Shown here piece after piece: positions 1-42,909 of a stretch of 49,628 nucleotides of DNA. The notes beneath the pieces are model-generated. The model saw only the letters and a program-made list of their open reading frames with translations, made no database searches and was not told the origin of the DNA. How positions within the stretch are numbered: the first letter of the stretch is position 1; each line of letters begins with the position of its first letter. Origin of the DNA: Escherichia phage JMPW1; the sequence record NC_041874.1; one strand, given 5' to 3'. A program made the position numbers and the translations under genes.

Positions 1-60
1 ATTGCATGGTTTGCAACAGTTGGTTGATTTGTTGCTTAGATTGCAATGATTGTGAGAGGG
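1..60. repeat. GATTGCA/TTTGCAA repeat tract (continues at 49590-49628 if the ends are joined)
   Basis: attgcatgg, tttgcaac, gattgcaatgattg at the left end; ctgattgcgattgattgcaaatgatg at the right end. Confidence 0.55.
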
Positions 61-105
61 GGGGATCTAGTGTTGCCCGGTTCGCCTGGTAGTCATCTCC
101 ATTTT

Positions 106-120
106 TAGCAAAAAGTGCTA
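106..120. promoter_or_regulatory. palindrome TAGCAaaaagTGCTA (operator-like, no -10 at the usual distance)
   Basis: Perfect 5+5 inverted repeat. Flanks match the consensus ATAGCACTTTTTGCTAAAA on the minus strand. Lies in the large divergent control region. Confidence 0.5.
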
Positions 121-136
121 TCGATTACACTTTACC

Positions 137-165
137 TTGTCACAGATGTAATATTTGTCTAGAAT
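137..165 (+). promoter_or_regulatory. sigma70-type early promoter candidate
   Basis: TTGTCA (137-142), 17-nt spacer, TAGAAT (160-165); overlaps iteron 147-162. Confidence 0.5.
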
Positions 166-437
166 CGCACTTGTGACAAAATTACACACTGTGACGCCTC
201 TAAATATACATATAGATATATGTATCTATATAATATATATAGTGTTTTCTTTATTTATATATATAGATAATTATATTGTAATAGTTGTGTATAGTTGTCT
301 TACATTGTCTAGCGTACTGTTGGCATATTTCTATCTGCATGTTTATATATACAGTACTTTTTTGAGAGCTATATATTTCTATAGTGACTCTAGACAGCTA
401 GACAAATGTTACACAGCTTAATATCGGCTCGCAGTCA

Positions 438-466
438 TTGACAGCTCTGTATCGCACTGTCACAAT
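438..466 (+). promoter_or_regulatory. sigma70-type early promoter candidate
   Basis: TTGACA (438-443), 17-nt spacer, CACAAT (461-466); 59 nt upstream of the first gene. Confidence 0.4.
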
Positions 467-524
467 GTCAATTGTTGACACATTATGACGCCATTTACAC
501 ACGAATAGACAAAGAGGATATATT

Positions 525-1040
525 ATGAGCAATACCAATCAGGAATTAAAAATCACCGATATGATTCGACTAACCTGCGATGCAATGTATCGCGACAAAG
601 GCATGAATGAGTTCTCTTTCGTGGCTGATGATATGGCCCTCGAGGCCGCGCGATTCTACTTCCGTGACCAGGAGGTAAGTGATAGCGATCTTGAATCTGC
701 CGCTGCCGGATGGGTGGACCAGAACCAGGGTGAGGTGGAGAAGCGATTCAAGTCTGCTTTCATTACGCCAATCATTACCCGGCACTTTTGCAAGTATGGC
801 AAGGTGGCAAAGGTGAAGGTAGGCCGGAATGACGCTGCAATCACAATGATAACGGTTATCGTTACCGACGAAGAGATTCCCGTGAAGAAGCGCCGCAGTC
901 GGAAGAAAGTTAGCCTGGCCGATTGCCTGGATTCGTTTGTGGTTGATGTGGGTAAACTGGCTGATAGCGAATTGATGACTCGTGACGTAAACGAGATCGT
1001 TCGCCAGATGAAGGCGCATATCGAAAAGTGTGGACTGTAA
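525..1040 (+). CDS. hypothetical early protein (171 aa)
   Basis: ATG 7 nt after AAAGAGGA SD; first ORF after control region A; no recognisable motif. Confidence 0.6.
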   Translation: MSNTNQELKITDMIRLTCDAMYRDKGMNEFSFVADDMALEAARFYFRDQEVSDSDLESAAAGWVDQNQGEVEKRFKSAFITPIITRHFCKYGKVAKVKVGRNDAAITMITVIVTDEEIPVKKRRSRKKVSLADCLDSFVVDVGKLADSELMTRDVNEIVRQMKAHIEKCGL

Positions 1041-1055
1041 GCACTGAGCGGTAAA

Positions 1056-1098
1056 TAGCACTTTTTGTTAAAACCGGATCGGGATAACGCGGTATAGT
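1056..1098 (+). promoter_or_regulatory. palindrome-promoter cassette
   Basis: TAGCActtttTGTTA, 22-nt spacer, TATAGT 1093-1098; hairpin GGGATAAC/GTTATCCC spans the -10. Confidence 0.55.
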
Positions 1099-1129
1099 TA
1101 TCCCATCAACAACGAATGAGAAAACGAAG

Positions 1130-1324
1130 ATGGAAACGCAAATTGACGTAGTGGTTGTTCAGCGAGACTCAACTCATGAAAAGGGTCTGTTTAAGAAGGG
1201 AACGGAAATCACGATCGACCTTGAGGATATGGTTGCTTATCACTCTGGACTTACCTGGAACGTGGTGCGCGTAGGCAGCGACTATAAACTCAAAGGCTTT
1301 AACACTTACTTTGCAGAGGCTTAA
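1130..1324 (+). CDS. hypothetical early protein (64 aa)
   Basis: ORF directly downstream of promoter cassette 1056-1098; GAGAAAACGAAG leader. Confidence 0.55.
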   Translation: METQIDVVVVQRDSTHEKGLFKKGTEITIDLEDMVAYHSGLTWNVVRVGSDYKLKGFNTYFAEA

Positions 1325-1326
1325 TC

Positions 1327-1797
1327 ATGACAACCATTACCGTATTTCTGGCTAAAGATGAGATTGATGGCGAAATGTCATTCTTCGCATTTGAGCACAA
1401 AACCGGATCGCACTGGCATATGTATAGCCGCTACACGGTTATCGATATCAACTCATACCGCGCAGGCTCACTTACTGAAAAGCTGGGTTGCTTCATTGGA
1501 GCTATCAAGGTGAACAATGGCTGCGAGTGGGCAGATGAGCACGAAGAGCGCCGCATGTGCAATATGATTAACCCGGTCTATCTTGAGTCGTTCGAGCTTG
1601 ATGCTGATGTGAACATTAAGGTGAGAAAGTCTGGTGAGTTATTGCCAGGGATGCGTGTGCTGACTGGTTACTCGGGCCGTAAGGTGTGGCGCACCGTATC
1701 GAAGATTCGCCAGCGTTCTGCAACATGCTACAGCGTATTCTTTGAAGATGGCTGGAATATGATGTCCGGTAGTGAGGTGAAGTATCTCACCAAATAG
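1327..1797 (+). CDS. hypothetical early protein (156 aa)
   Basis: Starts 3 nt after upstream stop; its TAG stop is the TAG of the next palindrome. Confidence 0.6.
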   Translation: MTTITVFLAKDEIDGEMSFFAFEHKTGSHWHMYSRYTVIDINSYRAGSLTEKLGCFIGAIKVNNGCEWADEHEERRMCNMINPVYLESFELDADVNIKVRKSGELLPGMRVLTGYSGRKVWRTVSKIRQRSATCYSVFFEDGWNMMSGSEVKYLTK

Positions 1798-1837
1798 CAC
1801 GAATTGTTAAAACCGGATCGGGGTATCTTGCTATAGT
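1795..1837 (+). promoter_or_regulatory. palindrome-promoter cassette
   Basis: TAGCAcgaatTGTTA, 22 nt, TGcTATAGT 1832-1837; hairpin GGGGTA/TACCCC. Confidence 0.55.
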
Positions 1838-1875
1838 TACCCCATCGAAACGAGATACCAATCAGAGGAATAACC

Positions 1876-2106
1876 ATGTCAATCGTCAAGAACCAGCAAG
1901 CAATCGATTAAACCAATAACAACCGCTTTGCTATTTTCATCACATCGATAGGTCGCCGATTTGCAGTCAAAGCCGTTCCGGGTGGATACAAAACCTACAT
2001 GGAAGATAAAGGAAAGTGGGTGTGGTGCGAAAACCTTGCAAACTTCCTAGTCTGGAATGCAGACCTCCAGGGCTTTGATGATATCAGCACCTTAATTGAG
2101 GAATAA
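1876..2106 (+). pseudogene. early gene interrupted by in-frame TAA (codon 12, 1909-1911)
   Basis: Canonical cassette leader ACCAATCAGAGGAATAACC-ATG. After an 11-aa ORF the same frame stays open for 64 more codons (TNNNRFAIF...STLIEE) to TAA 2104-2106. Confidence 0.45.
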
Positions 2107-2112
2107 ATAATT

Positions 2113-2340
2113 ATGCCACGTTACAATAAACAGACTAAACTCACCCGCGTAAACGGGCACATGATTCCGGCTGAATCCACTCACTACGCAATGGGCGCAA
2201 AGCACGGAGTCTATTTCAAGTGGCGCGGTCAATGGAACTTCACGGCGGTTAGTAATTTCTACATGCGCGTCCCAGGTATTGACCCGCAGACGGTCGTAGA
2301 GGACTCAATCGGCAACAACAAGATCGAGGTGCTAAAATGA
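2113..2340 (+). CDS. hypothetical early protein (75 aa)
   Basis: ORF track; ATG 7 nt after preceding stop. Confidence 0.55.
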   Translation: MPRYNKQTKLTRVNGHMIPAESTHYAMGAKHGVYFKWRGQWNFTAVSNFYMRVPGIDPQTVVEDSIGNNKIEVLK

Positions 2341-2447
2341 ACTTCAATACAATTGCTTTATGGTCTGCCGTCTGGTTCTTCTGTATGGGTCATGTCATGG
2401 TTGGAATCGTAGTTATGCTGCTACTGTGTGCGGGAGCGTTCGAATGA
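2337..2447 (+). CDS. putative 36-aa single-pass membrane peptide
   Basis: ATGA start/stop overlap with upstream gene; MNFNTIALWSAVWFFCMGHVMVGIVVMLLLCAGAFE is almost entirely hydrophobic. Confidence 0.3.
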   Translation: MNFNTIALWSAVWFFCMGHVMVGIVVMLLLCAGAFE

Positions 2448-2617
2448 TGCGCATTCTGATTTGCATGATGGCGGCGGTCGCACTGGCTATCCTGGTAGTG
2501 TCCGGCTGCGGAGAGGCCAAAGAGCGATGCCATGAAACCGGAAACCAGGTTACTACTTTCGTGATGGTTGGCAACGTATTGCTACCAATCACATCAAATG
2601 AAATCACTTGCGAATAG
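2444..2617 (+). CDS. small putative lipoprotein (57 aa)
   Basis: ATGATG overlaps upstream TGA; signal peptide MMRILICMMAAVALAILVVSG-C with lipobox VSGC. The longer 2360 start in the ORF track is less likely. Confidence 0.45.
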   Translation: MMRILICMMAAVALAILVVSGCGEAKERCHETGNQVTTFVMVGNVLLPITSNEITCE

Positions 2618-2626
2618 GATGTTAAA

Positions 2627-2818
2627 ATGGCTGATTTTATGCACCAAATGATTGCAGTATTCAAAGGTAGTGATGACCAGGAGGTGAAAGAGTGCTTTAC
2701 TGTAGACAAGCCTTATAGCGCATCGCTAACCAGCTTCGGGAATATCTCATTGCTTGATGATAACGGCGACCCCTGGGTATTCGACGAAGACACTGATTGC
2801 TTCGAAATTAAAGAATAG
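2627..2818 (+). CDS. hypothetical acidic protein (63 aa)
   Basis: ORF track; D/E-rich; TAG stop lies inside next palindrome. Confidence 0.5.
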   Translation: MADFMHQMIAVFKGSDDQEVKECFTVDKPYSASLTSFGNISLLDDNGDPWVFDEDTDCFEIKE

Positions 2819-2858
2819 CACTTTTTGTTAAAACTCAATATCGGGGTTGCGCTATAGT
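2816..2858 (+). promoter_or_regulatory. palindrome-promoter cassette
   Basis: TAGCActtttTGTTA, 22 nt, TATAGT 2853-2858; hairpin GGGGTT/AACCCC. Confidence 0.55.
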
Positions 2859-2889
2859 AACCCCATCGACAACAAACGAGGACACTAAC

Positions 2890-3378
2890 ATGAAAATCAA
2901 ATTGCTTTGCACTGGCGGTTACAAGGGCTTTACTCGCGACCTGGAAGCGGATCCTATCGTGATTGATGCGGTGAAGTGTGATGATAGCCTCGGCGGCTAC
3001 CGCGTGAAGGTTGACGACCTGGTGAAAGCTGGCGTGTACGATCTGGGCTATGGACTTTCGGTTAGCCCGGTAGTTGGTCCGGCAGACTTCAACGAGAAGG
3101 ATGGAACGATGTTCTTCTTCGAATGGGAAGTCCAGGCAAATCCTAAGCCGCGCAAGGTTCGTCTTCTCAGTAATGGCGGCTACCCGATGCGTCCAGGTTA
3201 TGAGAATCGCACATTCCCGGTTATCGTTGACTTTGAAGAAATCACCGCACACTTAGCTTATATCAACGGTGAACAGCTTCATGCTGTTGGATTCGTGGGA
3301 TGTATGAATCAAGAGGCGCTATGCTTCTTCCATTGTAAAGCCGAGCCGTTCGATATTGAGTGCGAGTTAGTATACTAA
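2890..3378 (+). CDS. hypothetical protein with internal tandem duplication (162 aa)
   Basis: Follows cassette 2816-2858. Repeats KIKLLCTGGYKGF...PIVIDAV and KVRLLSNGGYPMRPGY...PVIVDFE. Confidence 0.6.
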   Translation: MKIKLLCTGGYKGFTRDLEADPIVIDAVKCDDSLGGYRVKVDDLVKAGVYDLGYGLSVSPVVGPADFNEKDGTMFFFEWEVQANPKPRKVRLLSNGGYPMRPGYENRTFPVIVDFEEITAHLAYINGEQLHAVGFVGCMNQEALCFFHCKAEPFDIECELVY

Positions 3379-3419
3379 GCACGAATTGTTAAAAGGGGAT
3401 TTGGCCTGACTGGTATAAT
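3377..3419 (+). promoter_or_regulatory. palindrome-promoter cassette
   Basis: AAGCAcgaatTGTTA, 22 nt, TGgTATAAT 3414-3419; hairpin GGGGATT/AATCCCC. Confidence 0.55.
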
Positions 3420-3449
3420 CCCCGCATAAACCACTAAGAGGAAAGCATC

Positions 3450-3956
3450 ATGTTAAAATTAGAAGACGTAAAATTCCCGATTAAATTTATCAGCCTAGGT
3501 TGCGGTGAAATTACATTCACCAGTGAAGATAAAGGCAAGTGGGACAATGATAAAATGTCTCAGCTTAAGTTGGATTGGTTTATCAATCGGCACAATGAAG
3601 TAAATCCTGAAAACTCAGCCAAGAAGGATTACCATTACATTATTAGTGGTAGTCAGGATGCGTACGAAAAGTATGATGGTTGGAAAATTGTTCGATCAAT
3701 CTTCCACCCCGCAAAGCCAGAAATTAAACCGATGTTACAATGCGCTCAGATCGAGAACATTCCATTGAGCGCGACGCTAAAAGGAGTGCAGCTTGATGAT
3801 AAATCCTGGCTTGAAATAACCGCCACGCCGAAAACTATTGAAGTGCACGACGATATCGTCACTCTTCTATTGCATTACGGCAGCTTTAAGCACAAAGCGG
3901 TATCAGGTGAAATCAGCATTAAGCGCGGAACACTTGTGCGCTATGAGGTGAAATAA
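3450..3956 (+). CDS. hypothetical early protein (168 aa)
   Basis: Follows cassette 3377-3419; AAGAGGAAAGCATC-ATG. Confidence 0.6.
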   Translation: MLKLEDVKFPIKFISLGCGEITFTSEDKGKWDNDKMSQLKLDWFINRHNEVNPENSAKKDYHYIISGSQDAYEKYDGWKIVRSIFHPAKPEIKPMLQCAQIENIPLSATLKGVQLDDKSWLEITATPKTIEVHDDIVTLLLHYGSFKHKAVSGEISIKRGTLVRYEVK

Positions 3957-4030
3957 TGGCTGCATGGGTTTTGATTATCTTAATGAGTACCGGGCCGGAT
4001 CACGTATACATGGAAAGTCAGCAATCATGA
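3956..4030 (+). CDS. possible 24-aa micro-ORF
   Basis: TAATG overlap with upstream stop; MAAWVLIILMSTGPDHVYMESQQS; very short, so weak. Confidence 0.2.
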   Translation: MAAWVLIILMSTGPDHVYMESQQS

Positions 4031-4102
4031 AACAAGGTACGGGAAGTAATTGCAGAGAATAAGCCGTTCGGATATGAAGTAAAAACGATGTGCGTTAAAC
4101 GA

Positions 4103-4145
4103 TAGCACGAATTGCTAAACCTTCCGCAAGGCCATTTGATATAGT
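4103..4145 (+). promoter_or_regulatory. palindrome-promoter cassette
   Basis: TAGCAcgaatTGCTA, 22 nt, TGaTATAGT 4140-4145; hairpin AAGGCCA/TGGCCTT. Confidence 0.6.
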
Positions 4146-4185
4146 GGCCTTATTGAAGCAAGGCAACCAATCAGAGGAATCAGCT

Positions 4186-4392
4186 ATGGCTACACGACTA
4201 ACTCAGTGGCAGATTTACGACAAGGCCTCACGCCTTCGTGAATCGCTTCGCGGACTGACGCCGAATGACCGAATGGAGATTATCGGGCACGCATTGCACG
4301 AACTAACATCTCAGGACGTAATCTATCATTCATGCGGCAATAAATTCTGGAACGTGACATTCGAGGTAAAGAAAGATGAGCAAAACTCATAA
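4186..4392 (+). CDS. hypothetical early protein (68 aa)
   Basis: ATG after conserved leader AACCAATCAGAGGAATCAGCT. The GTG 4144 start in the ORF track lies inside the -10 element. Confidence 0.5.
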   Translation: MATRLTQWQIYDKASRLRESLRGLTPNDRMEIIGHALHELTSQDVIYHSCGNKFWNVTFEVKKDEQNS

Positions 4393-4663
4393 GTTAAAAA
4401 TCGCCCCGATACATTTCATTGGTGTAATGAACGGAACCAAAACGGCAGAGTTCCGCATCAATGACCGCAACTTCCAGGTTGGTGATATCCTTGAGCTACG
4501 CGAGTTCGATCGTGACGACTTTACCGGGTGGGAAGTTCACGCCAGGGTGTCCGATGTTACAGACGTGACGCCATACATCAATCGCGGTTATGACGAGCAA
4601 GAATGCGACTTCACGCAATACGTGATGTTATCAATCAAGCCTTACAGGAAGGTTAGACCATGA
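4376..4663 (+). CDS. DUF3850 / ASCH (PUA-like) domain protein
   Basis: HKLKIAPIHFIGVMNGTKTAEFRINDRNFQVGDILELREF matches my memory of the DUF3850 N-terminal signature. Confidence 0.6.
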   Translation: MSKTHKLKIAPIHFIGVMNGTKTAEFRINDRNFQVGDILELREFDRDDFTGWEVHARVSDVTDVTPYINRGYDEQECDFTQYVMLSIKPYRKVRP

Positions 4664-5298
4664 AATTTGAGTGCGTATCAAGTAGCGGATCTGGTTTTAA
4701 GTGGGGAAAAACTTACAAAGGTGTTCGCGTAAATGATGACAGCTTCATCATTACTGATGAGAACGGTTGCAACGTGAACGTTGTACGGCGTCACGAATAT
4801 CAGGAAATTTTCCTGCCTTATGGCGGTAGCTCAAAATATATCTTCCATCGAATCGTGGATGGTGTTAAATTTAACGACGTAATCGAAGCAATCAACCAAC
4901 TGCATAATAAAGAGGTAAAATTTATGAAATTCGAATGTATCAGCGACAACACTAAAAAATTTACCGTTGGAAAAATTTACAACGTTCCTTCTGAGCACGC
5001 TAAGCACACTTTAGCGCTGACCGACGACACAGGCTGCCAACGCATTGCAACCGTGACGCACAATGGCGAAGGTCTTCGCTGGAACAGCGGCGGCACTAAG
5101 TTCGCAACTTTCGGTAAGAAGCGCAAGCGCAATTTCCGCGTCAACGGCAAGATCAACACCAGCAAGATTAGCAACGTCAAGCCTATTAATGTTGACCACA
5201 AGCCAGAGCTTGATCTTAAAGGCAAGGTGGATATTCCTGATATGGCTTTAGCGATCCTTATTCTTGTTGCTCTAATTTCTATCATGCTCATCATGTAA
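4660..5298 (+). CDS. membrane-anchored protein with two tandem MKFEC mini-domains
   Basis: Repeat 1 starts MKFECVSSSGSGFKWGKTY and repeat 2 MKFECISDNTKKFTVGKIY. Repeat 2 keeps its own AAGAGG-ATG at 4909-4926. C-terminal TM helix MALAILILVALISIMLIM. Confidence 0.6.
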   Translation: MKFECVSSSGSGFKWGKTYKGVRVNDDSFIITDENGCNVNVVRRHEYQEIFLPYGGSSKYIFHRIVDGVKFNDVIEAINQLHNKEVKFMKFECISDNTKKFTVGKIYNVPSEHAKHTLALTDDTGCQRIATVTHNGEGLRWNSGGTKFATFGKKRKRNFRVNGKINTSKISNVKPINVDHKPELDLKGKVDIPDMALAILILVALISIMLIM

Positions 5299-5305
5299 TT
5301 TTAAC

Positions 5306-5339
5306 GGGGAATTGGCTCTGAGCGGTTCCCCTTTCTTTT
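5306..5339 (+). terminator. intrinsic terminator fused to SD
   Basis: GGGGAA...TTCCCC stem then TTTCTTTTGGAG. Confidence 0.55.
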
Positions 5340-5351
5340 GGAGAAAACACT

Positions 5352-5462
5352 ATGCCAGACTTTTCTAACTGGAATAACGAGCCGCCATCATTTCAGGAGT
5401 TGCTATTCTGCCTCCTGGTCCTGACATTATCTCTTAAGGGTGTTTTATGGCTACTATCATAA
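5352..5462 (+). CDS. possible 36-aa membrane peptide
   Basis: GGAG SD fused to terminator T-run; MPDFSNWNNEPPSFQELLFCLLVLTLSLKGVLWLLS; overlaps next gene by 16 nt. Confidence 0.3.
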   Translation: MPDFSNWNNEPPSFQELLFCLLVLTLSLKGVLWLLS

Positions 5463-5665
5463 CAGCAGAAGATGCAGCACGCGACGCAGTGGAAGGAATG
5501 CGCCCAAATACCTCCAGAATAGCACACTACTACAAATCTGAGGTGTCGGCAGTGCAATTGGTCAACGAAATTTTAAGGCTACCACAAGTCGATTCAGCGC
5601 GCGTGGTGACGTGCTTAAAAAATTATTTTTGCATCGCTATTAAAACGAATAGCACGAATTGCTAA
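5447..5665 (+). CDS. hypothetical early protein (72 aa)
   Basis: ORF track; stop lies in palindrome 5650-5664. Confidence 0.45.
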   Translation: MATIITAEDAARDAVEGMRPNTSRIAHYYKSEVSAVQLVNEILRLPQVDSARVVTCLKNYFCIAIKTNSTNC

Positions 5666-5692
5666 AACCTATCAAGGGGAATGCGCTATGAT
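5650..5692 (+). promoter_or_regulatory. palindrome-promoter cassette
   Basis: TAGCAcgaatTGCTA, 22 nt, TATGAT 5687-5692; hairpin GGGAAT/ATTCCC. Confidence 0.5.
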
Positions 5693-5722
5693 TCCCATGC
5701 ACCAACAAACGAGGAAGCACTC

Positions 5723-6169
5723 ATGAAACACTTAATTTGCATTGAAACGCCTAACGACCAGTACACCCTGCACGGCATTGGAATGTTCAAAGGTCACTAC
5801 ATGACAGCAAGTATTCATGATTCGCGTTGCGTCAATGGCGATCTGATGATTACGTCAAAAGAAGTAACTCCGTACATTATGCAGAATCTTGGCAATAACG
5901 AATATATGGCCTACGGATGCAATGCGGTGTACAAGCATATCAAGATCAGAAAACGCGTTGTTCGCGCATTCAAGAAAATTGCAATGAAACAATGGAAGAT
6001 GAGCAAGAAAGATGCTGGACGCTGGGCGCGTAACGTTGCAGATTCATACTTCTACCGTAACGGTGAGTCCTGCCACTTCCTTATCGATGAACTTATGGAA
6101 AACTACGGCGGCGACTTCAGTCAGGGTGGCTTTGACGCTTGGGCTGACTACGAGGTCGATTACTGGTAA
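5723..6169 (+). CDS. hypothetical early protein (148 aa)
   Basis: ATG after ACGAGGAAGCACTC. The 5681 start in the ORF track overlaps the -10 hexamer TATGAT 5687-5692. Confidence 0.55.
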   Translation: MKHLICIETPNDQYTLHGIGMFKGHYMTASIHDSRCVNGDLMITSKEVTPYIMQNLGNNEYMAYGCNAVYKHIKIRKRVVRAFKKIAMKQWKMSKKDAGRWARNVADSYFYRNGESCHFLIDELMENYGGDFSQGGFDAWADYEVDYW

Positions 6170-6212
6170 TAGCACGAATTGCTAAAACTTGCTCAAGGGC
6201 ATTTGATAGAAT
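6170..6212 (+). promoter_or_regulatory. palindrome-promoter cassette
   Basis: TAGCAcgaatTGCTA, 22 nt, TGaTAGAAT 6207-6212; hairpin AAGGGCAT/ATGCCCTT. Confidence 0.6.
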
Positions 6213-6252
6213 GCCCTTCGTTGAGTTAAGCAACCAATCAGAGGAATAAATC

Positions 6253-6864
6253 ATGGATAAAATTACCATTTGGGGCCAGACAATCAACCTGTTTCTCGGC
6301 ACGCGCCGCGTAGCAATCTTTGACTTTGATGGAACACTTAGCGATGGATCTGGTCGACTTCACCTGCTACCTACAAAGGATTTGCACTTAACTGAAAGCT
6401 GGTCCGAGTTTAACCGCGCGGCAATATTTGACAACCCTATCCAAAGCACGATCGATGTGATGAACTCTATGTATGCCGCTGGTCATCATGTGATCATTTT
6501 AACCGGGCGAAGTGATGAGGTGCGTTACGCATCTGAGTTGTGGCTTAAGCATCACGGCGCTCGATATGATTACCTGATTATGCGACCATACACCGATAAC
6601 CGGAAAGACACAGTAATGAAAGAAGAGGCGGTGCGCGCGATCGGCATTGATAACATTCTGGCGGCCTGGGATGACTCACCGCAAATTATTCCATTATTCC
6701 GCTCACTTGGAATAACCACTTACGCTGTAGTTGACTATGGCGATAAAGTTCACGATCATTTAAAATCTCACGGGGTAGATGAGGTTTGCAATCATGAACC
6801 ATCTGAGCCGCTACCGCCATTTGGTGAGAAAATTTGCATTAAGTGCAAGGAGTTATTGAAGTGA
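6253..6864 (+). CDS. HAD-family polynucleotide 3'-phosphatase-like protein (T4 Pnkp C-terminal-domain type)
   Basis: DFDGTL motif I, ILTGR motif, RKDTVMKEEAV and WDDSPQIIPLFRSLGI. These resemble T4 Pnkp phosphatase-domain blocks (RKDDVVKEE, IDDRTQVVEMW) as I remember them. Confidence 0.75.
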   Translation: MDKITIWGQTINLFLGTRRVAIFDFDGTLSDGSGRLHLLPTKDLHLTESWSEFNRAAIFDNPIQSTIDVMNSMYAAGHHVIILTGRSDEVRYASELWLKHHGARYDYLIMRPYTDNRKDTVMKEEAVRAIGIDNILAAWDDSPQIIPLFRSLGITTYAVVDYGDKVHDHLKSHGVDEVCNHEPSEPLPPFGEKICIKCKELLK

Positions 6865-6971
6865 ACCTATACGAATTTATTGCAGCACATCCGGTACTAA
6901 CAGTTATCATTCTGTTAATCATAAACTCCACCATCATCAATGTGGCGAAATTATTTTTAGGGAGATACTGA
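6861..6971 (+). CDS. possible 36-aa membrane peptide
   Basis: GTGA overlap with upstream stop; MNLYEFIAAHPVLTVIILLIINSTIINVAKLFLGRY; its stop lies 1 nt before the next ATG. Confidence 0.3.
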   Translation: MNLYEFIAAHPVLTVIILLIINSTIINVAKLFLGRY

Positions 6972-6972
6972 C

Positions 6973-7545
6973 ATGAAAACAGCTATCATTTTAAACGGTG
7001 CGCCTGGCGCGGGAAAAGACACTATAGGGTGCATCCTGGCTGACACTTACGATCATGTAGCGCTACGCAGCTTTAAAGCTCCAATGTTTGAGATTGCCCG
7101 AGCAATCCTGGGTGAGACTAATTTTGAGTATTTCATGTTCTTGTATGAGGACCGTCGCTATAAAGAAGAGCCAGCATCAATCCTGAACGGTAAAAGCCCG
7201 CGCCAGTTTATGATCTGGATTAGCGAGGAGGTTATCAAGCCGCAGTTCGGAAATCGCTTCTTCGGTATGCGAGCGGAAAGCAAGGTGAAAGAGTCTCACT
7301 CCCTTTCGGTATTTACTGACGGTGGATTCAAAGACGAAATCTTGCAGATGATTGAAGGTGAAATCCAGGTCAAGCTATGTCGAATCCATCGCAACGGTTG
7401 CAACTTTGACAACGACAGTCGCGACTACATCTATCTTGACGATATGATCGGGGTCAACGGTTATCAGGAATGTGACTTCTTCTCTGTCGAAGGTCATCCA
7501 GAAATTACCGCTCAGCACATAGCCGCCACGTTCATCAACAAATAG
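6973..7545 (+). CDS. P-loop kinase of the phage dNMP-kinase family
   Basis: Walker A GAPGAGKDT; LNGKSP and SPRQFMIWISEE blocks resemble T4 gp1 dNMP kinase (GKDT, LNGKSP). Confidence 0.7.
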   Translation: MKTAIILNGAPGAGKDTIGCILADTYDHVALRSFKAPMFEIARAILGETNFEYFMFLYEDRRYKEEPASILNGKSPRQFMIWISEEVIKPQFGNRFFGMRAESKVKESHSLSVFTDGGFKDEILQMIEGEIQVKLCRIHRNGCNFDNDSRDYIYLDDMIGVNGYQECDFFSVEGHPEITAQHIAATFINK

Positions 7546-7585
7546 CACGAATTGCTAAAACGTCGGTGGGGTGACTTGATATAGT
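7543..7585 (+). promoter_or_regulatory. palindrome-promoter cassette
   Basis: TAGCAcgaatTGCTA, 22 nt, TGaTATAGT 7580-7585; imperfect hairpin GGGGTGAC/GTTACCTC. Confidence 0.6.
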
Positions 7586-39385: not shown

Positions 39386-40099
39386 ATGAAAGACTTTAAT
39401 GATATCGAAACTATCGACTTTGCTGAAACTGGTTGCTCATTCACTCGCGAAGCAATAGCGTTTGGCGGTTATTATCAGGCACTAAAAACTCCAACATGCA
39501 AAGAGATTTCAGGCCGTCGATATAAGGGAACCAATACGCCGGATGTTGTTCGTGATTTATGGTCAACCCCGCGCGAGGTTATTGCGTACCTTGAGGGGCG
39601 TTATGGAAAATACGATCTCGACGCTGCGGCAAGCGAAGAAAATAAAGTTTGCGAGAAGTTTTATTCTCAGGAAACAAACTGCTTAAAACGTTGGTGGGGT
39701 AAAAACAAGCATGTATGGTTAAACCCTCCTTATAGTCGACCTGATATATTCGTCAAGAAGGCGATCGAGCAAATGGAGCACAATAATCAGATTGATATTC
39801 TGTTGCCTGCCGATAATTCTACAGCGTGGTTTACTGAGGCGCGACAGCACGCGGCTGAAATCATCTGGATTGAAGCTGACTTGACTGAGGATATTGACGG
39901 CAACAAGTATGCTCGATCCGGACGACTGGCGTTTATATCCGGTGAAACCGGAAAGGCCGTAGATGGTAATAACAAAGGTTCGGTAATTTTTATCATGCGC
40001 GAACTTAAAGATGGTGAGACGCAGCAAACTCACTATATCCCAATCACAAGCATTTTCCCTTCGGTGAAAAACAAGCGCGCAAAAGTGAGGAAAGTATGA
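39386..40099 (+). CDS. dam: DNA N6-adenine methyltransferase (phage Dam family)
   Basis: WSTPREV...DLDAAAS...WLNPPYS (NPPY catalytic motif). Confidence 0.85.
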   Translation: MKDFNDIETIDFAETGCSFTREAIAFGGYYQALKTPTCKEISGRRYKGTNTPDVVRDLWSTPREVIAYLEGRYGKYDLDAAASEENKVCEKFYSQETNCLKRWWGKNKHVWLNPPYSRPDIFVKKAIEQMEHNNQIDILLPADNSTAWFTEARQHAAEIIWIEADLTEDIDGNKYARSGRLAFISGETGKAVDGNNKGSVIFIMRELKDGETQQTHYIPITSIFPSVKNKRAKVRKV

Positions 40100-40347
40100 T
40101 GAACGAGAAAATGATTCCGGTTAAGTTAACTGATCAAGGTTTATGGCTGCTTTATCGAGCTACCTGCTGCGAAATTATGGAGCGAAACGGATTGACTCAG
40201 GATGTTATTGGTTGCGATCTGTGGGAGTTCACTAGTTCTCTTGATATGTCTTTCGATGAGATAAAAAATGAATACATAGAGAATTGGCCTTCAATCATAC
40301 AGAAAGACGTGGAAGAACTTAAAGCTGATACAATCGTACAGCACTAA
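40096..40347 (+). CDS. hypothetical protein (83 aa)
   Basis: ATGA overlap with dam. Confidence 0.5.
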   Translation: MMNEKMIPVKLTDQGLWLLYRATCCEIMERNGLTQDVIGCDLWEFTSSLDMSFDEIKNEYIENWPSIIQKDVEELKADTIVQH

Positions 40348-40381
40348 TTGCTAAAAATACCCGACGAAAGTCGGGTATAGT
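40339..40381 (+). promoter_or_regulatory. palindrome-promoter cassette
   Basis: CAGCActaatTGCTA, 22 nt, TATAGT 40376-40381; hairpin CCCGAC/GTCGGG in the spacer. Confidence 0.5.
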
Positions 40382-40413: not shown

Positions 40414-40623
40414 ATGGCACGCATTAATGCAAACTTTTTCAATATCGCTCAACAGTCCGCAAAAATGGCTGTTCATATCACTGACAAGAAAGGCGGCAAC
40501 TTTGATTGGGATATTGCTATGAACTTCCTAAAAATGGCTTATTACCTCTGCTCAGTCAAAGAGGTTGAGTGTTTTATTGAAAGCGTGGAGAAACTAACTA
40601 ATGCTGATAAAAAAACAAGGTAA
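40414..40623 (+). CDS. hypothetical protein (69 aa)
   Basis: GAGGAATCAGAAG-ATG after cassette 40339-40381. Confidence 0.5.
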   Translation: MARINANFFNIAQQSAKMAVHITDKKGGNFDWDIAMNFLKMAYYLCSVKEVECFIESVEKLTNADKKTR

Positions 40624-40873
40624 ACGCGAGGTTTGGGAACACGCGAAGGAATGTGGGATCTCAGACGATATAGCGCTAATAGCGAAATATTTCGATATAA
40701 AGGATGTTAGCATTATCTCAAACGGCAAGATTTCATTTATGGAAGATATGCCGAGAAAAATGCATAGAGTTCCAGCAACTCCATCACTTGAGTTTTACCG
40801 CGAAGAGGGAAAGAGAATTGAGCGAGAAAGAAAATCCACAAAAAACGGCAAGTCTTCCCGGCTTAAATATTAA
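40601..40873 (+). CDS. hypothetical protein (90 aa)
   Basis: ORF track; basic C-terminus; contains A_AAA_AAC at 40840-40846. Confidence 0.45.
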   Translation: MLIKKQGKREVWEHAKECGISDDIALIAKYFDIKDVSIISNGKISFMEDMPRKMHRVPATPSLEFYREEGKRIERERKSTKNGKSSRLKY

Positions 40874-41105
40874 TGCGGACGAATACCAGGCAATATGGAT
40901 CGGTAAAAAGCAGGTTAAGCAAATTCATTTCTCTGACTGGTTGCCACCTGACTTTGTTAACGTGCTTTGCACTATCGGTATTGAGCAGGAGTTGCATATA
41001 GGTTACTACTCACCTGGCCGAAACAGTATGATGCTTGAGGTTGACGGAAAACTCGTTGAGTTTAAATCTTCAGATCTAGGATTCTGGTTGAAGGCTGTGG
41101 CATGA
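40818..41105 (+). CDS. hypothetical protein (start uncertain; TTG 40818 proposed)
   Basis: Frame open from 40704. GAGGGA SD 7 nt before TTG 40818. Overlaps 40601-40873 in the +1 frame. Confidence 0.35.
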   Translation: MSEKENPQKTASLPGLNINADEYQAIWIGKKQVKQIHFSDWLPPDFVNVLCTIGIEQELHIGYYSPGRNSMMLEVDGKLVEFKSSDLGFWLKAVA

Positions 41106-41173
41106 AACTTTATTTTGCTGTAGTATTAACACCGCTAATTTCATTTTCAGTAATGTATTTCATTATCATGTAA
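41102..41173 (+). CDS. possible 23-aa hydrophobic peptide
   Basis: ATGA overlap with upstream stop; MKLYFAVVLTPLISFSVMYFIIM. Confidence 0.25.
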   Translation: MKLYFAVVLTPLISFSVMYFIIM

Positions 41174-41183
41174 GGATTAAAAT

Positions 41184-42335
41184 ATGTCACAAGCTAAAAT
41201 CACTACCGAGCAACTTGTCGAAGAGCGCATGAACGGCCTTACACTTCGCGAGATCGCGGAAAAGTACGGTATGCATATTCGAACTGTTGAGGCTCGACAC
41301 GCAAAATTGGCAAAAGAAGGCCACTTTCACGGCAATGAGCATGTTGCTAAAAACGTTCCTGAAGGCTTCATGGTAAAAGGCACATCAACAATGATTCGCG
41401 GTGATGGGACTGAGGTCGTGCGATGGGTTAAGACCGATCAGGACCGTGAGAAGATTGCAGCTATGATGGAAGCTGCACGCATTGCATTTTGTGAAGACTT
41501 GCCGCGAGCAAAGCCAACTGAGCTGCTCACATCGCAAGGTCTTACAACCTCTATTGGAAAGCTGGCACTATACCCGGTGTTCGATCTTCACATTGGCGCG
41601 CTTGCTCATAAGCATGAATGTGGAGAGAACTACTCTACCGACGTAGCGGAAAAAGTGCTTAGCGACTTCTTTAATTACGCGATCGATATTGCTCCGAACG
41701 CAGAGAAGGCCGTTCTTTTAATCGGCGGTGACTTCCTTCACTCGGACGGTCTTGATGCTGTTACCCCGGCAAGTGGTCACGTTCTGGATCAGGATTCACG
41801 ATATGCAAAATTGGTGCATGTAGCTATTAGATCTGTTCGTCGCGCTATCGACAAAATGCTACTGAAACACAAAGAAGTCGAGGTCCAGGTTATCGAAGGG
41901 AACCACGATCAGTCTGGGATGATTTGGCTGCGCGCTGCAATGTCGGCATATTATGAAGACGAGCCGCGAGTATTCGTTGACGTTAGTCCTATGATTCTGC
42001 ATAAGACTCGTTGGGGAAATACCTTGTTGGGATACACTCACGGGCACACTATGAAAAAGGCAGAGACTCGACTCGCAGCTATGGCAGCAGATTTCCGCGC
42101 AGATTTTGGTGAAAGCAAATACGTGTACACGCATAGCGGTCACTGGCATCACCAGACAATCACTGAGCACTCACTCGGTATTGATGAGGTTCACGGCCAG
42201 TTAGGCGCGAAAGACGCATACGCAGCACGAGGAGGGTGGCGCTCGTATCGCCAGGCGGCTGTAATTGTTTACGATAAGCAATTTGGGGAAATCGGTCGTT
42301 TCATCTATCGTCCAGAAATGACAGGATCGCACTAA
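41184..42335 (+). CDS. HTH domain fused to calcineurin-like metallophosphoesterase
   Basis: N-terminal LTLREIAEKYGMHIRTVEARH HTH; phosphoesterase motifs DLHIG, GGDFLH, EGNHD, GHTH, SGHWHH. Confidence 0.7.
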   Translation: MSQAKITTEQLVEERMNGLTLREIAEKYGMHIRTVEARHAKLAKEGHFHGNEHVAKNVPEGFMVKGTSTMIRGDGTEVVRWVKTDQDREKIAAMMEAARIAFCEDLPRAKPTELLTSQGLTTSIGKLALYPVFDLHIGALAHKHECGENYSTDVAEKVLSDFFNYAIDIAPNAEKAVLLIGGDFLHSDGLDAVTPASGHVLDQDSRYAKLVHVAIRSVRRAIDKMLLKHKEVEVQVIEGNHDQSGMIWLRAAMSAYYEDEPRVFVDVSPMILHKTRWGNTLLGYTHGHTMKKAETRLAAMAADFRADFGESKYVYTHSGHWHHQTITEHSLGIDEVHGQLGAKDAYAARGGWRSYRQAAVIVYDKQFGEIGRFIYRPEMTGSH

Positions 42336-42596: not shown

Positions 42597-42628
42597 AGGC
42601 TGGCATGATTTAGATGCTGGCCTTTTTG
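42597..42628 (+). terminator. intrinsic terminator before lysis cassette
   Basis: AGGCTGGCAT ... ATGCTGGCCT imperfect stem then TTTTT. Confidence 0.5.
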
Positions 42629-42693
42629 CGTTGTGTCAAATAAATTTGAAGGTTAAAATCAACTCACTTGTTCAAAAAATATATGGTGAGATT

Positions 42694-42909
42694 ATGAAAG
42701 AATTTTTAACCGCAGCTACGTCTAGCACGGGCGGGGCTTCATTAGTGGGGGCGGCGACCGGGCAGCTTTATATTGCTGGCGCTACATTCATTTGCTTTCT
42801 GCTTTTTGGTGCTTGGGGCGCATACTGGAAGTATCGTGATAGCAAGGCGATTCAGGAAGCGTTAAACGATGGCGATCTAAATAAGGCACTTAAGATCAGG
42901 GGGAGATAA
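42694..42909 (+). CDS. holin (small, possibly pinholin-like)
   Basis: 71 aa, two hydrophobic segments, charged C-terminus; immediately upstream of endolysin; GGTGAG SD. Confidence 0.65.

Follow-up and report, generated by a model that had tools for sequence, protein, structure and literature searches.

Escherichia phage JMPW1 (sequence record NC_041874.1) carries five very short open reading frames (ORF1 to ORF5; 23-36 amino acids, aa) that a preliminary description of this DNA had presented as one set of unannotated genes for hydrophobic micro-peptides. Our analysis of the whole 49,628-nucleotide (nt) stretch, here called the window, indicates instead that these are five mutually unrelated small genes that form no single family; four of them (ORF1, ORF3, ORF4 and ORF5) are predicted to encode translationally coupled peptides with one inner-membrane helix each, and ORF2 appears to be the stump of a longer gene. 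We put the probability of this reading at roughly 80%. In the light of the comparative data given below, it is very likely that each of the five frames codes, or once coded, for a protein. Judged by its similarities, the 49.6-kb window is essentially the whole genome of a T1-like Tunavirus (Drexlerviridae); its first 8 kb are 99.8-99.9% identical to those of Enterobacteria phage IME167, Escherichia phage Henu5_2 and phi2013, all of them Tunavirus, and 88-92% identical to those of many other T1-like phages. T1-like phages have long served as models and are notorious for contaminating laboratories, yet for about half of their genes, chiefly the small ones, no function is known (PMC13164509). ORF1-ORF4 are already known as hypothetical proteins, and what is added for them here is the proof of coding together with corrections concerning ORF2 and an 85-aa lipoprotein precursor. 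The new part is ORF5, whose family, as sequence comparison indicates, is conserved across Drexlerviridae but overlooked, being annotated only sporadically. ORF5 is of the small membrane protein type and no new kind of system, and because no new mechanism is established the value of these findings is incremental.

All five micro-ORFs were found, with the peptides attributed to them, at the positions in Table 1, and the start-on-stop overlaps claimed for four of them are present (ATGA at 2337-2340, TAATG at 3954-3958, GTGA at 6861-6864 and ATGA at 41102-41105). ORF3 has, as had been described, a Shine-Dalgarno sequence placed after a terminator-like element (hairpin 5306-5331 plus T-run, with GGAG 8 nt before the ATG) and a 16-nt overlap with the next gene. 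The word unannotated applies essentially only to ORF5, since ORF1-ORF4 are annotated in T1 and/or LeonhardEuler and are present in public databases, where an exact-sequence look-up retrieved ORF1, the long form of ORF2, ORF3 and ORF4 as hypothetical proteins. Specifically, the 2004 annotation of T1 (NC_005833) has ST73 (gp73, 36 aa), ST69 (gp69, 49 aa) and ST67 (gp67, 36 aa) at the positions of ORF1, ORF2 and ORF3, and LeonhardEuler (Bas13) annotates homologues of ORF1, ORF3 and ORF4 (bas13_0062, bas13_0071 and bas13_0075) and a different frame in the ORF2 gap. These are the same genes, at the same position and of the same length, except that ORF2 of the window has a premature TGA and that T1 is without ORF4, an HNH gene occupying its slot. 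Among the near-identical records, phi2013 annotates ORF1 only, IME167 none of the five and Henu5_2 none.

Table 1. Positions in the window of the micro-ORFs and of the features discussed with them.
Feature	Position	Strand	Length	Peptide	Remarks
ORF1	2337..2447	+	36 aa	MNFNTIALWSAVWFFCMGHVMVGIVVMLLLCAGAFE	Homologue of T1 ST73 and bas13_0062; phrog_25570
Lipoprotein gene	2444..2617	+	57 aa (precursor)		Lipobox LVVSG|C; T1 ST72 homologue; phrog_8628
ORF2 as found	3956..4030	+	24 aa		N-terminal remnant of a 49-aa gene; TGA at 4028-4030
Ancestral ORF2 frame	3956..4105	+	49-55 aa (T1 ST69 family)		Open past the TGA to TAG 4103-4105
Intrinsic-terminator-like hairpin and T-run	5306..5341	+			Terminator scan; directly upstream of ORF3
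ORF3	5352..5462	+	36 aa	MPDFSNWNNEPPSFQELLFCLLVLTLSLKGVLWLLS	Homologue of T1 ST67 and bas13_0071
ORF4	6861..6971	+	36 aa	MNLYEFIAAHPVLTVIILLIINSTIINVAKLFLGRY	GTG start; homologue of bas13_0075
ORF5	41102..41173	+	23 aa	MKLYFAVVLTPLISFSVMYFIIM	Drexlerviridae-wide micro-gene family, rarely annotated
Exonuclease gene	41184..42335	+	383 aa		phrog_704 ("DNA repair exonuclease"), E = 2e-156; coupled downstream of ORF5

The comparison of synonymous with non-synonymous changes in relatives, which the preliminary description had proposed as a check, revealed frame-specific constraint. The ratio of non-synonymous to synonymous substitution rates (dN/dS), a pooled pairwise Nei-Gojobori estimate from related, non-independent sequences with few substitutions, was 0.11 for ORF1, 0.14 for ORF2 (over 49 codons), 0.32 for ORF3 and 0.10 for ORF4 among Tunavirus relatives, and 0.06-0.26 for ORF5 in three other clades; flanking accepted genes gave 0.02-0.25. 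The other two frames of ORF1-ORF4 had values of 1.1-3.0 (1.2 and 3.0 for ORF1, 1.1 and 1.5 for ORF3, 1.4 and 2.5 for ORF4). Variable sites were likewise in excess at the third codon position, with counts for the three positions of 12/7/23 in ORF1 (p = 0.003), 10/5/18 in ORF3 (p = 0.01) and 6/2/15 in ORF4 (p = 0.002), and with p = 0.015 for ORF2. Homologues of every ORF were identified in other genera by tblastn and iterated profile searches, at 30-50% identity and with length and motifs kept. The start-on-stop layout is also kept in distant homologues, even behind different upstream genes, and a Shine-Dalgarno-like sequence stands upstream of most variants; in the window itself GGAG, GAGGT or AAGGA lies 6-9 nt before ORF1-ORF4, and ORF5 has only a weak AAGG. 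We take these comparative tests to establish the micro-ORFs as real genes, and the earlier suggestion that they are genuine and easily missed held up, in that the five frames are under purifying selection or conserved across genera.

The micro-ORFs lie within tightly packed operons in which ORF1, ORF2, ORF4 and ORF5 start on the upstream stop codon; at the other end, the stops of ORF1, ORF4 and ORF5 either coincide with the following start codon or are no more than 10 nt from it. Such interlocked starts and stops are the layout expected for termination-reinitiation coupling, which would hold the products at a fixed ratio to their neighbours. Hydrophobicity was scored as the best 19-residue Kyte-Doolittle window, and proteins of <=50 aa with a mean above about 1.6 were counted as membrane peptides. 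By this measure the claim of one hydrophobic helix each stands for ORF1 (2.46), ORF3 (2.37), ORF4 (2.25) and ORF5 (2.24), and falls for ORF2 (1.15). We consider it likely, from composition, that the four hydrophobic peptides are membrane-inserted, and they would then enter the inner membrane of E. coli as single-pass proteins. ORF5, with an N-terminal Lys or Arg, would be N-in/C-out by the positive-inside rule; ORF3, with an acidic N-terminus, one hydrophobic segment and a Lys near the C-terminus, and ORF4, with Lys and Arg near the C-terminus, would both be N-out/C-in. Peptides of 23-36 residues are too small for enzymes and would thus act via larger membrane proteins, of the host or of the phage, to which they bind, or via the bilayer, which they would perturb. 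Small membrane proteins are expected to act through larger partners, and our best guess is that the targets would be in the envelope or membrane; any specific biological role that might be named is doubtful. ORF1-ORF4 belong to a block of small genes at the left end, almost every one of which is annotated as a hypothetical protein; some of the four, at least, would be accessory because T1 carries an HNH gene in the ORF4 slot and ORF2 is broken in the lineage of the window. ORF5 stands at the head of a conserved exonuclease-SH3-pinholin-SAR endolysin-spanin block (PMC13164509). In the literature we found no published experimental data on these ORFs.

Several observations weigh against a set of functional membrane peptides. 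Hydrophobic composition could partly reflect T-rich sequence, and the dN/dS estimates rest on small counts from kin sequences. ORF4 is missing from T1, ORF2 is broken in the window and one ORF5 nonsense allele exists (loci L138/L192; in L138 the stop is at codon 3), so that none of these would be strictly essential under laboratory conditions. Within Tunavirus, ORF5 has four variable sites only and a dN/dS of 0.62, a value that is uninformative because the sites are so few. ORF1 is without basic residues, and its distant homologues have a central GHPG or DSPG, which together make a kinked or hairpin topology possible. A helical hairpin for ORF1 received no support from AlphaFold2 applied to the protein of the window, which as a single sequence was modelled as one helix (residues 3-35) with a predicted local distance difference test score (pLDDT) of 92.7.

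Among known systems, bacterial inner-membrane proteins of the YohP (27 aa) type, of <=50 aa, are similar in size, in having essentially a single transmembrane segment and in having no catalytic domain (PMC7549839; bioRxiv 10.1101/2025.05.06.652344). The ORFs described here are unlike them in being phage-encoded and, by their layout, translationally coupled, and are unrelated to them in sequence (no NCBIfam or Pfam match). The most plausible functional analogy for ORF1, ORF3 and ORF4 is with Gp11 of Staphylococcus aureus phage PhiNM1, described as a small membrane protein (PMC11237401), and Emp of Mosigvirus AV110, both of which are small early products, formerly without a known function, that bind host envelope-synthesis proteins; the phages concerned are unrelated to T1-like phages, and the two proteins have no sequence similarity to the ORFs.

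It has also to be asked whether one or more of the hydrophobic peptides are membrane-depolarising toxins of a type I-like kind, serving host shut-off, the exclusion of phages dependent on TonB and the proton-motive force, or the timing of pinholin and SAR endolysin. Ibs, ShoB and TisB, the type I toxins of E. coli, are like the ORFs hydrophobic single-helix peptides of about 19-35 aa, and the peptides of 23-36 aa with one helix resemble these, as well as YohP, in size and composition. The C-terminal LISFS..Y of ORF5 loosely recalls the C-terminus of Ibs, which we take as a lead only. In favour of such a role are also the place of ORF5 in the exonuclease-to-spanin block (PMC13164509) and the fact that growth-inhibiting small early phage proteins are documented (PhiNM1 Gp11, PMC11237401; AV110 Emp). 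Scans of the peptides with Pfam, NCBIfam and PADLOC models, however, returned no matches; in particular no NCBIfam model matched ORF1, ORF3, ORF4, ORF5 or three ORF5 homologues at E <= 1, and an Rfam scan of the whole window matched no family, known antitoxin small RNAs included, very short queries limiting the sensitivity of such NCBIfam and Rfam searches. Type I toxins belong to toxin-antitoxin loci with an antisense small RNA, whereas the peptides are encoded in phage operons. Nor do the five peptides appear among known holins or antiholins (no Pfam match, and PHROG matches, for ORF1 and ORF2, to unnamed families only); the holin gene itself is the ORF at 42631-42909 (phrog_2877), about 1.5 kb downstream of ORF5 beyond the exonuclease gene, with a terminator-like hairpin (42597-42623) between. 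The five peptides and the lipoprotein also matched no PADLOC model of a defence component. Nor are the surroundings of ORF5 and ORF1 structured RNA elements, since the z-scores of their predicted folding were 0.3 and 0.7. We therefore regard a toxin role as unlikely and prefer coupled membrane peptides of a more general kind.

The best-populated family is that of ORF5. It begins in an ATGA that also holds the stop codon of the preceding gene, and its TAA runs into the Shine-Dalgarno sequence of the exonuclease gene (TAAGGA), 10 nt before the ATG. We examined IMG/VR loci around the kinase gene (71) and the exonuclease gene (160); some of these loci duplicate GenBank phages, and distinct loci were counted on a 600-nt key. 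A first scan of the slot, in which an ORF had to end no more than 30 nt ahead of the exonuclease start and no more than 15 nt past it, found a hydrophobic ORF of 20-32 aa at 99 of 104 exonuclease loci, amounting to 32 distinct peptides, and a second scan, seeded with a 60%-identical exonuclease, yielded further variants. A profile built from 30 variants was run over 127 distinct loci, and at 92 of them it detected a family member ahead of the exonuclease. Hydrophobic members of 22-31 aa are thus present at 92 of the 94 distinct loci of Drexlerviridae type, adjoining the exonuclease gene (within 25 nt) at 90 and lying 476 nt upstream at two of TLS type. The 35 loci without a member comprise the other two Drexlerviridae-type loci and 33 contigs of 52-57 kb that match mEp021-like temperate phages. 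These 33 all lack the micro-ORF despite an orthologous exonuclease, which is preceded there by another conserved leader, and so serve as a natural negative control. By this distribution ORF5 is close to a core gene of the family. In its largest clade (10 distinct sequences) dN/dS is 0.06, and in two other clades 0.08 and 0.26; out-of-frame values in these clades are mostly higher (0.45-4.1) where they could be estimated. The aligned variants suggest a shared plan in which position 2-3 is basic and some 18 hydrophobic residues, often with a central Pro, follow, and our reading of the 30-variant alignment suggests a common (I/V/M)(M/I/V)Y..(I/V)M near the C-terminus. In most of the variants printed out, the TAA stop runs into the exonuclease Shine-Dalgarno sequence as TAAGGA or TAAGAGGA.

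A micro-gene of 22-31 aa upstream of the exonuclease, present in almost all Drexlerviridae examined, is missing from reference annotations. ORF5 is annotated in none of T1, LeonhardEuler, KLB19, SRT8 and TLS (both records), and a DNA search of its region listed 60 records, in each of which the annotation goes straight from one flanking gene to the other. The exact 23-aa sequence is absent from a collection of about 15 billion proteins. Six exact variants of 23-27 aa and two of 29 aa are not in that collection; the versions of 23-27 aa that we checked, from Tunavirus, TLS, Rtp-type and other phages, are unannotated. The same collection does have four other variants, of 28-31 aa, under the name of hypothetical proteins, from ESh4, Penguinator, K50PH164C1 and metagenome-assembled phages. 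Shigella phage ESh4 (URY10757.1), Klebsiella phage Penguinator (QEG13425.1) and vB_Kpn_K50PH164C1 (CAK6597150.1) thus have members of the ORF5 family in the same slot, which differ from ORF5 in the additional N-terminal residues (MRIIIM.. or MLRM..) of the longest ORF in the slot and were annotated because these residues make them long enough for gene callers. ORF5 matches no PHROG, Pfam or NCBIfam model, and the literature that we found on T1-like phages does not describe such ORFs as a family. As a gene of 23 codons in T1 or Bas13 it is a concrete and inexpensive target for experiments, and it offers a motif for annotators to add.

A different account of ORF5 is that it is only a regulatory upstream ORF, which delivers ribosomes to the exonuclease ribosome-binding site or unmasks that site, and that its peptide is without function. 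The architecture is what a coupling device requires, the stop codon standing next to the downstream ribosome-binding site: in most distinct variants TAA leads straight into a Shine-Dalgarno-like GGA or GAGGA, and at almost every locus only 0-14 nt separate the stop from the start of the exonuclease gene. There is, moreover, no clear synonymous excess in the ORF5 frame within Tunavirus. A mere coupling device should, however, drift freely and be dispensable once uncoupled, and neither is seen. The peptide is constrained in the three other clades (dN/dS 0.06, 0.08 and 0.26), and our alignment reading suggests that its pattern persists over about 40% divergence of the exonuclease. In TLS the insertion of an HNH gene has put 476 nt between the ORF5 homologue and the exonuclease gene, and yet the ORF5 homologue is intact; its start, by arithmetic from the locus coordinates alone, falls in an ATGA on the stop of gp64. 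Conversely, mEp021-like phages express the orthologous exonuclease without any micro-ORF. We consider the purely regulatory account very unlikely. Because selection seems to act on the peptide itself, and because ribosomes finish translating it at the ribosome-binding site of the exonuclease gene, ORF5 probably makes a functional membrane peptide and also feeds ribosomes to the exonuclease gene. Long-range pairing of the ORF5 and exonuclease start regions in a centroid fold was no better than in shuffled sequence and was discarded. A further step, that the family is a hitherto unrecognised, nearly universal Drexlerviridae micro-protein of 22-31 aa, an N-in/C-out helix with a function of its own tied to the exonuclease-SH3-pinholin-SAR endolysin-spanin block, is a speculation to which we give low odds; ORF5 might, for example, hold an SbcD-like phosphoesterase at the membrane, or set the membrane potential and so the timing of lysis. 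On that reading few core genes in any major family of coliphages would be as small, and the length limits of gene callers would be why it was missed. The match of the exonuclease to calcineurin-like phosphoesterases is weak, Pfam Metallophos_2 falling below the cut-off, and a PDB sequence search with the exonuclease gave no meaningful match.

Some features of the surroundings of ORF5 may be recorded here. In TLS (NC_009540 39965-40636; L134 1923-2021, L240) the annotated start of endY, at 39965, overlaps the intact ORF5 homologue in another frame and is probably over-extended. HNH homing-endonuclease genes are found at two micro-ORF junctions, ST63 in the ORF4 slot of T1 and endY between ORF5 and exonuclease in TLS. 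In the mEp021-like loci (L194-L230, L236, L237) the exonuclease is 65-67% identical to that of locus L153, and in many of them TATACAAAATGTAAAC or a close variant, with a strong Shine-Dalgarno sequence, stands upstream of the exonuclease gene and replaces the micro-ORF. Upstream of ORF5 two ORFs of the window (40601-40873 and 40704-41105) overlap heavily in different frames; the first, of 90 aa, resembles a protein in Klebsiella-phage-type loci and is without annotation in T1. The start of the ST17 homologue differs between T1 and LeonhardEuler (95 versus 133 aa).

ORF2, by alignment and structure prediction, is the stump of a small globular beta-beta-alpha-beta protein that was cut short by a lineage-specific nonsense change, and it has no predicted membrane helix. 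Its DNA is homologous to the T1 ST69 family over the whole 150 nt, the long form is 94% identical to ST69, and the TAG that closes the ancestral frame is the first triplet of an intergenic repeat (TAGCACGAATTGC). Alignment with LeonhardEuler reveals a single C>A change, TGC>TGA, at the first conserved Cys codon. The TGA allele is common to the window, Henu5_2, phi2013 and IME167, and the codon is TGC or TGT in nine other sequences of eight phages, with three further loci lying outside the search pattern. Members of phrog_5579 are complete proteins of ~49-55 aa with two conserved cysteines, and the product of the window covers only positions 1-27 of the 52 positions; with homology over its whole length, the window sequence is a nonsense allele of a member of this family. 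Homologues in other genera, at 30-48% identity, have the pattern [SA]C..A.E.I..N....C[VI]KK, and a homologue search with the 49-aa family retrieved only relatives at 86-96% identity. From an alignment of 8 full-length relatives AlphaFold2 predicted beta4-10, beta13-19, alpha22-35 and beta43-48 (pLDDT 87.6); a Foldseek search of the PDB with this model returned nothing below E = 0.2, the top hits being PII-like half-folds and uninformative.

Could the 24-aa product have taken on a new role after truncation and be functional in its own right? In its favour, the truncation is a fixed allele in four phages of the species that were sequenced independently of one another. Only the first two strands of the predicted four-element fold are left, though, and both conserved cysteines are lost. 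The downstream half is still open and little changed from that of relatives, which suggests a recent loss, and a second early gene is also nonsense in the same lineage, so that a functional stump has little chance of being the right explanation and recent loss of ORF2 is the reading we retain. The second gene is the homologue of T1 ST75 (76 aa; window 1876-2106), which has TAA at codon 12 where relatives have TCA, an allele common to the window, Henu5_2, phi2013, IME167 and JMPW2. The JMPW1 species lineage accordingly carries nonsense alleles in two early genes.

ORF1 is interlocked with its neighbours on both sides, its start overlapping the stop of a DUF7274 gene (ATGA) and its stop overlapping the start of a lipoprotein gene (ATGA 2444-2447), and it has a GAGGT Shine-Dalgarno sequence 6 nt upstream. 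It belongs to phrog_25570, which it matches over its full length (positions 1-36 of 36, E = 3.4e-27, hmmscan), and is 86% identical to T1 ST73 in the matching genomic slot, falling into the same 90% cluster as YP_003871.1. Its homologues in other genera are of 35-36 aa, at 30-42% identity, with the motif ...GH...GAFD/E, ending GAFD/E. The lipoprotein gene has a PHROG match at E = 2.5e-29 and a dN/dS of 0.12; the mature part of its product is 36 aa with three Cys, making it a second small lipoprotein besides Cor. One could read the ORF1 region as the N-terminal part of an 85-aa lipoprotein precursor (2360-2617), given that no stop codon interrupts this frame in the window and that Henu5_2 has it annotated (PQ362312.1 2271-2528). 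Of 13 relatives, however, 2 have stop codons in the segment peculiar to it (2360-2443) and another 2, including T1, are without its ATG, and the extension peptide is hypervariable (dN/dS about 3), whereas ORF1 is nearly invariant. In addition, T1, phi2013, IME167 and LeonhardEuler all start the lipoprotein at the shorter ATG, the one that overlaps the ORF1 stop. The long precursor is almost certainly not real; on sequence grounds the 85-aa ORF annotated in Henu5_2 is a false N-terminal extension, and ORF1 plus a 57-aa lipoprotein is correct. Two annotation errors are thereby put right, this precursor in Henu5_2 and the probably over-extended endY start in TLS.

Whether ORF1 and the lipoprotein form a fixed functional pair was also considered and rejected, distant ORF1 homologues preceding other small hydrophobic ORFs or an unrelated gene. 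At two loci (L054 3628-3951 and L055 1100-1423) three ORFs of ~35-38 aa, with one hydrophobic segment each, follow one another with overlaps, the second of them being the ORF1 homologue, and a third locus (L065 4665-4878) has the second and third. These triplets in TLS-like genera suggest clusters of membrane micro-proteins in the ORF1 gene block.

That the five ORFs are chance open frames in non-coding spacers can be set aside with near certainty: their shortness, our estimate that chance alone would leave about 18% of random 36-codon frames open, and their omission by most annotation pipelines speak for it, but their dN/dS and codon-position patterns resemble those of neighbouring genes, their length, motifs and start-on-stop architecture are kept in distant homologues, and the ORF5 slot is filled at 92 of 94 distinct loci when only 20 of the 600 small ORFs of the window (20-60 aa, six frames) are strongly hydrophobic. 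The coding-strand gaps hold no such ORFs other than those first reported.

The GGAG Shine-Dalgarno sequence of ORF3 comes after the T-run of the hairpin, and the T1 record has a rho-independent terminator annotated at the matching place. ORF3 is 100% identical to T1 ST67, and the gene that it overlaps occupies 5447-5665. Its homologues in phage SRT8 (Sertoctavirus; locus L016) and at locus L017 are of 40-41 aa and have WNEPP...KG in common, and in SRT8 the homologue likewise precedes a homologue of the gene at 5447. In the ORF3 operon, a 212-aa ORF (4660-5298) consists of two tandem repeats, each beginning MKFEC, followed by a basic linker and a C-terminal hydrophobic tail (DMALAILILVALISIMLIM); by its layout it looks like a tail-anchored membrane protein. 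One of the repeats has a weak match to DUF7244, a family placed in the SH3 clan (PMC13164509).

ORF4 lies between a polynucleotide-kinase phosphatase gene (GTGA overlap) and a P-loop kinase-like gene (TGAcATG, 1 nt gap), in a gap that is exactly 112 nt long in 13 relatives. Its start codon is ATG in some relatives and GTG in others and in the window. The peptide is 91% identical to the LeonhardEuler copy, the motif AHPVLT...AK recurs in homologues, and SRT8 has a 50%-identical homologue in the same slot, which in T1 is occupied by the HNH gene ST63 (NC_005833 5465-5959). At locus L015, of the type of Shigella phage vB_SsoS_008, the homologues of ORF2, ORF3 and the lipoprotein are disrupted by a frameshift or an in-frame stop or give a split match, while that of ORF4 is without its usual start and runs on to 74 aa; these defects could be real gene decay or reflect an assembly of lower quality.

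Finally, the window contains a 17-nt core, AGCACnnnTTGyTAAAA, 19 times where chance would predict 0.06 occurrences, for example at 1057-1073, 1796-1812, 2817-2833, 3378-3394 and 4104-4120, and further at 5651-5667, 6171-6187, 7544-7560 and 40340-40356. This core agrees with a 21-nt repeat (aaATAGCACnnnTTGnTAAAA) that work on TLS has reported from the intergenic regions of Drexlerviridae (PMC11447400). In the parts inspected (1-7500 and around 40340) the copies stand directly after a stop codon on the coding strand, and each of the five micro-ORFs is located downstream of a copy.

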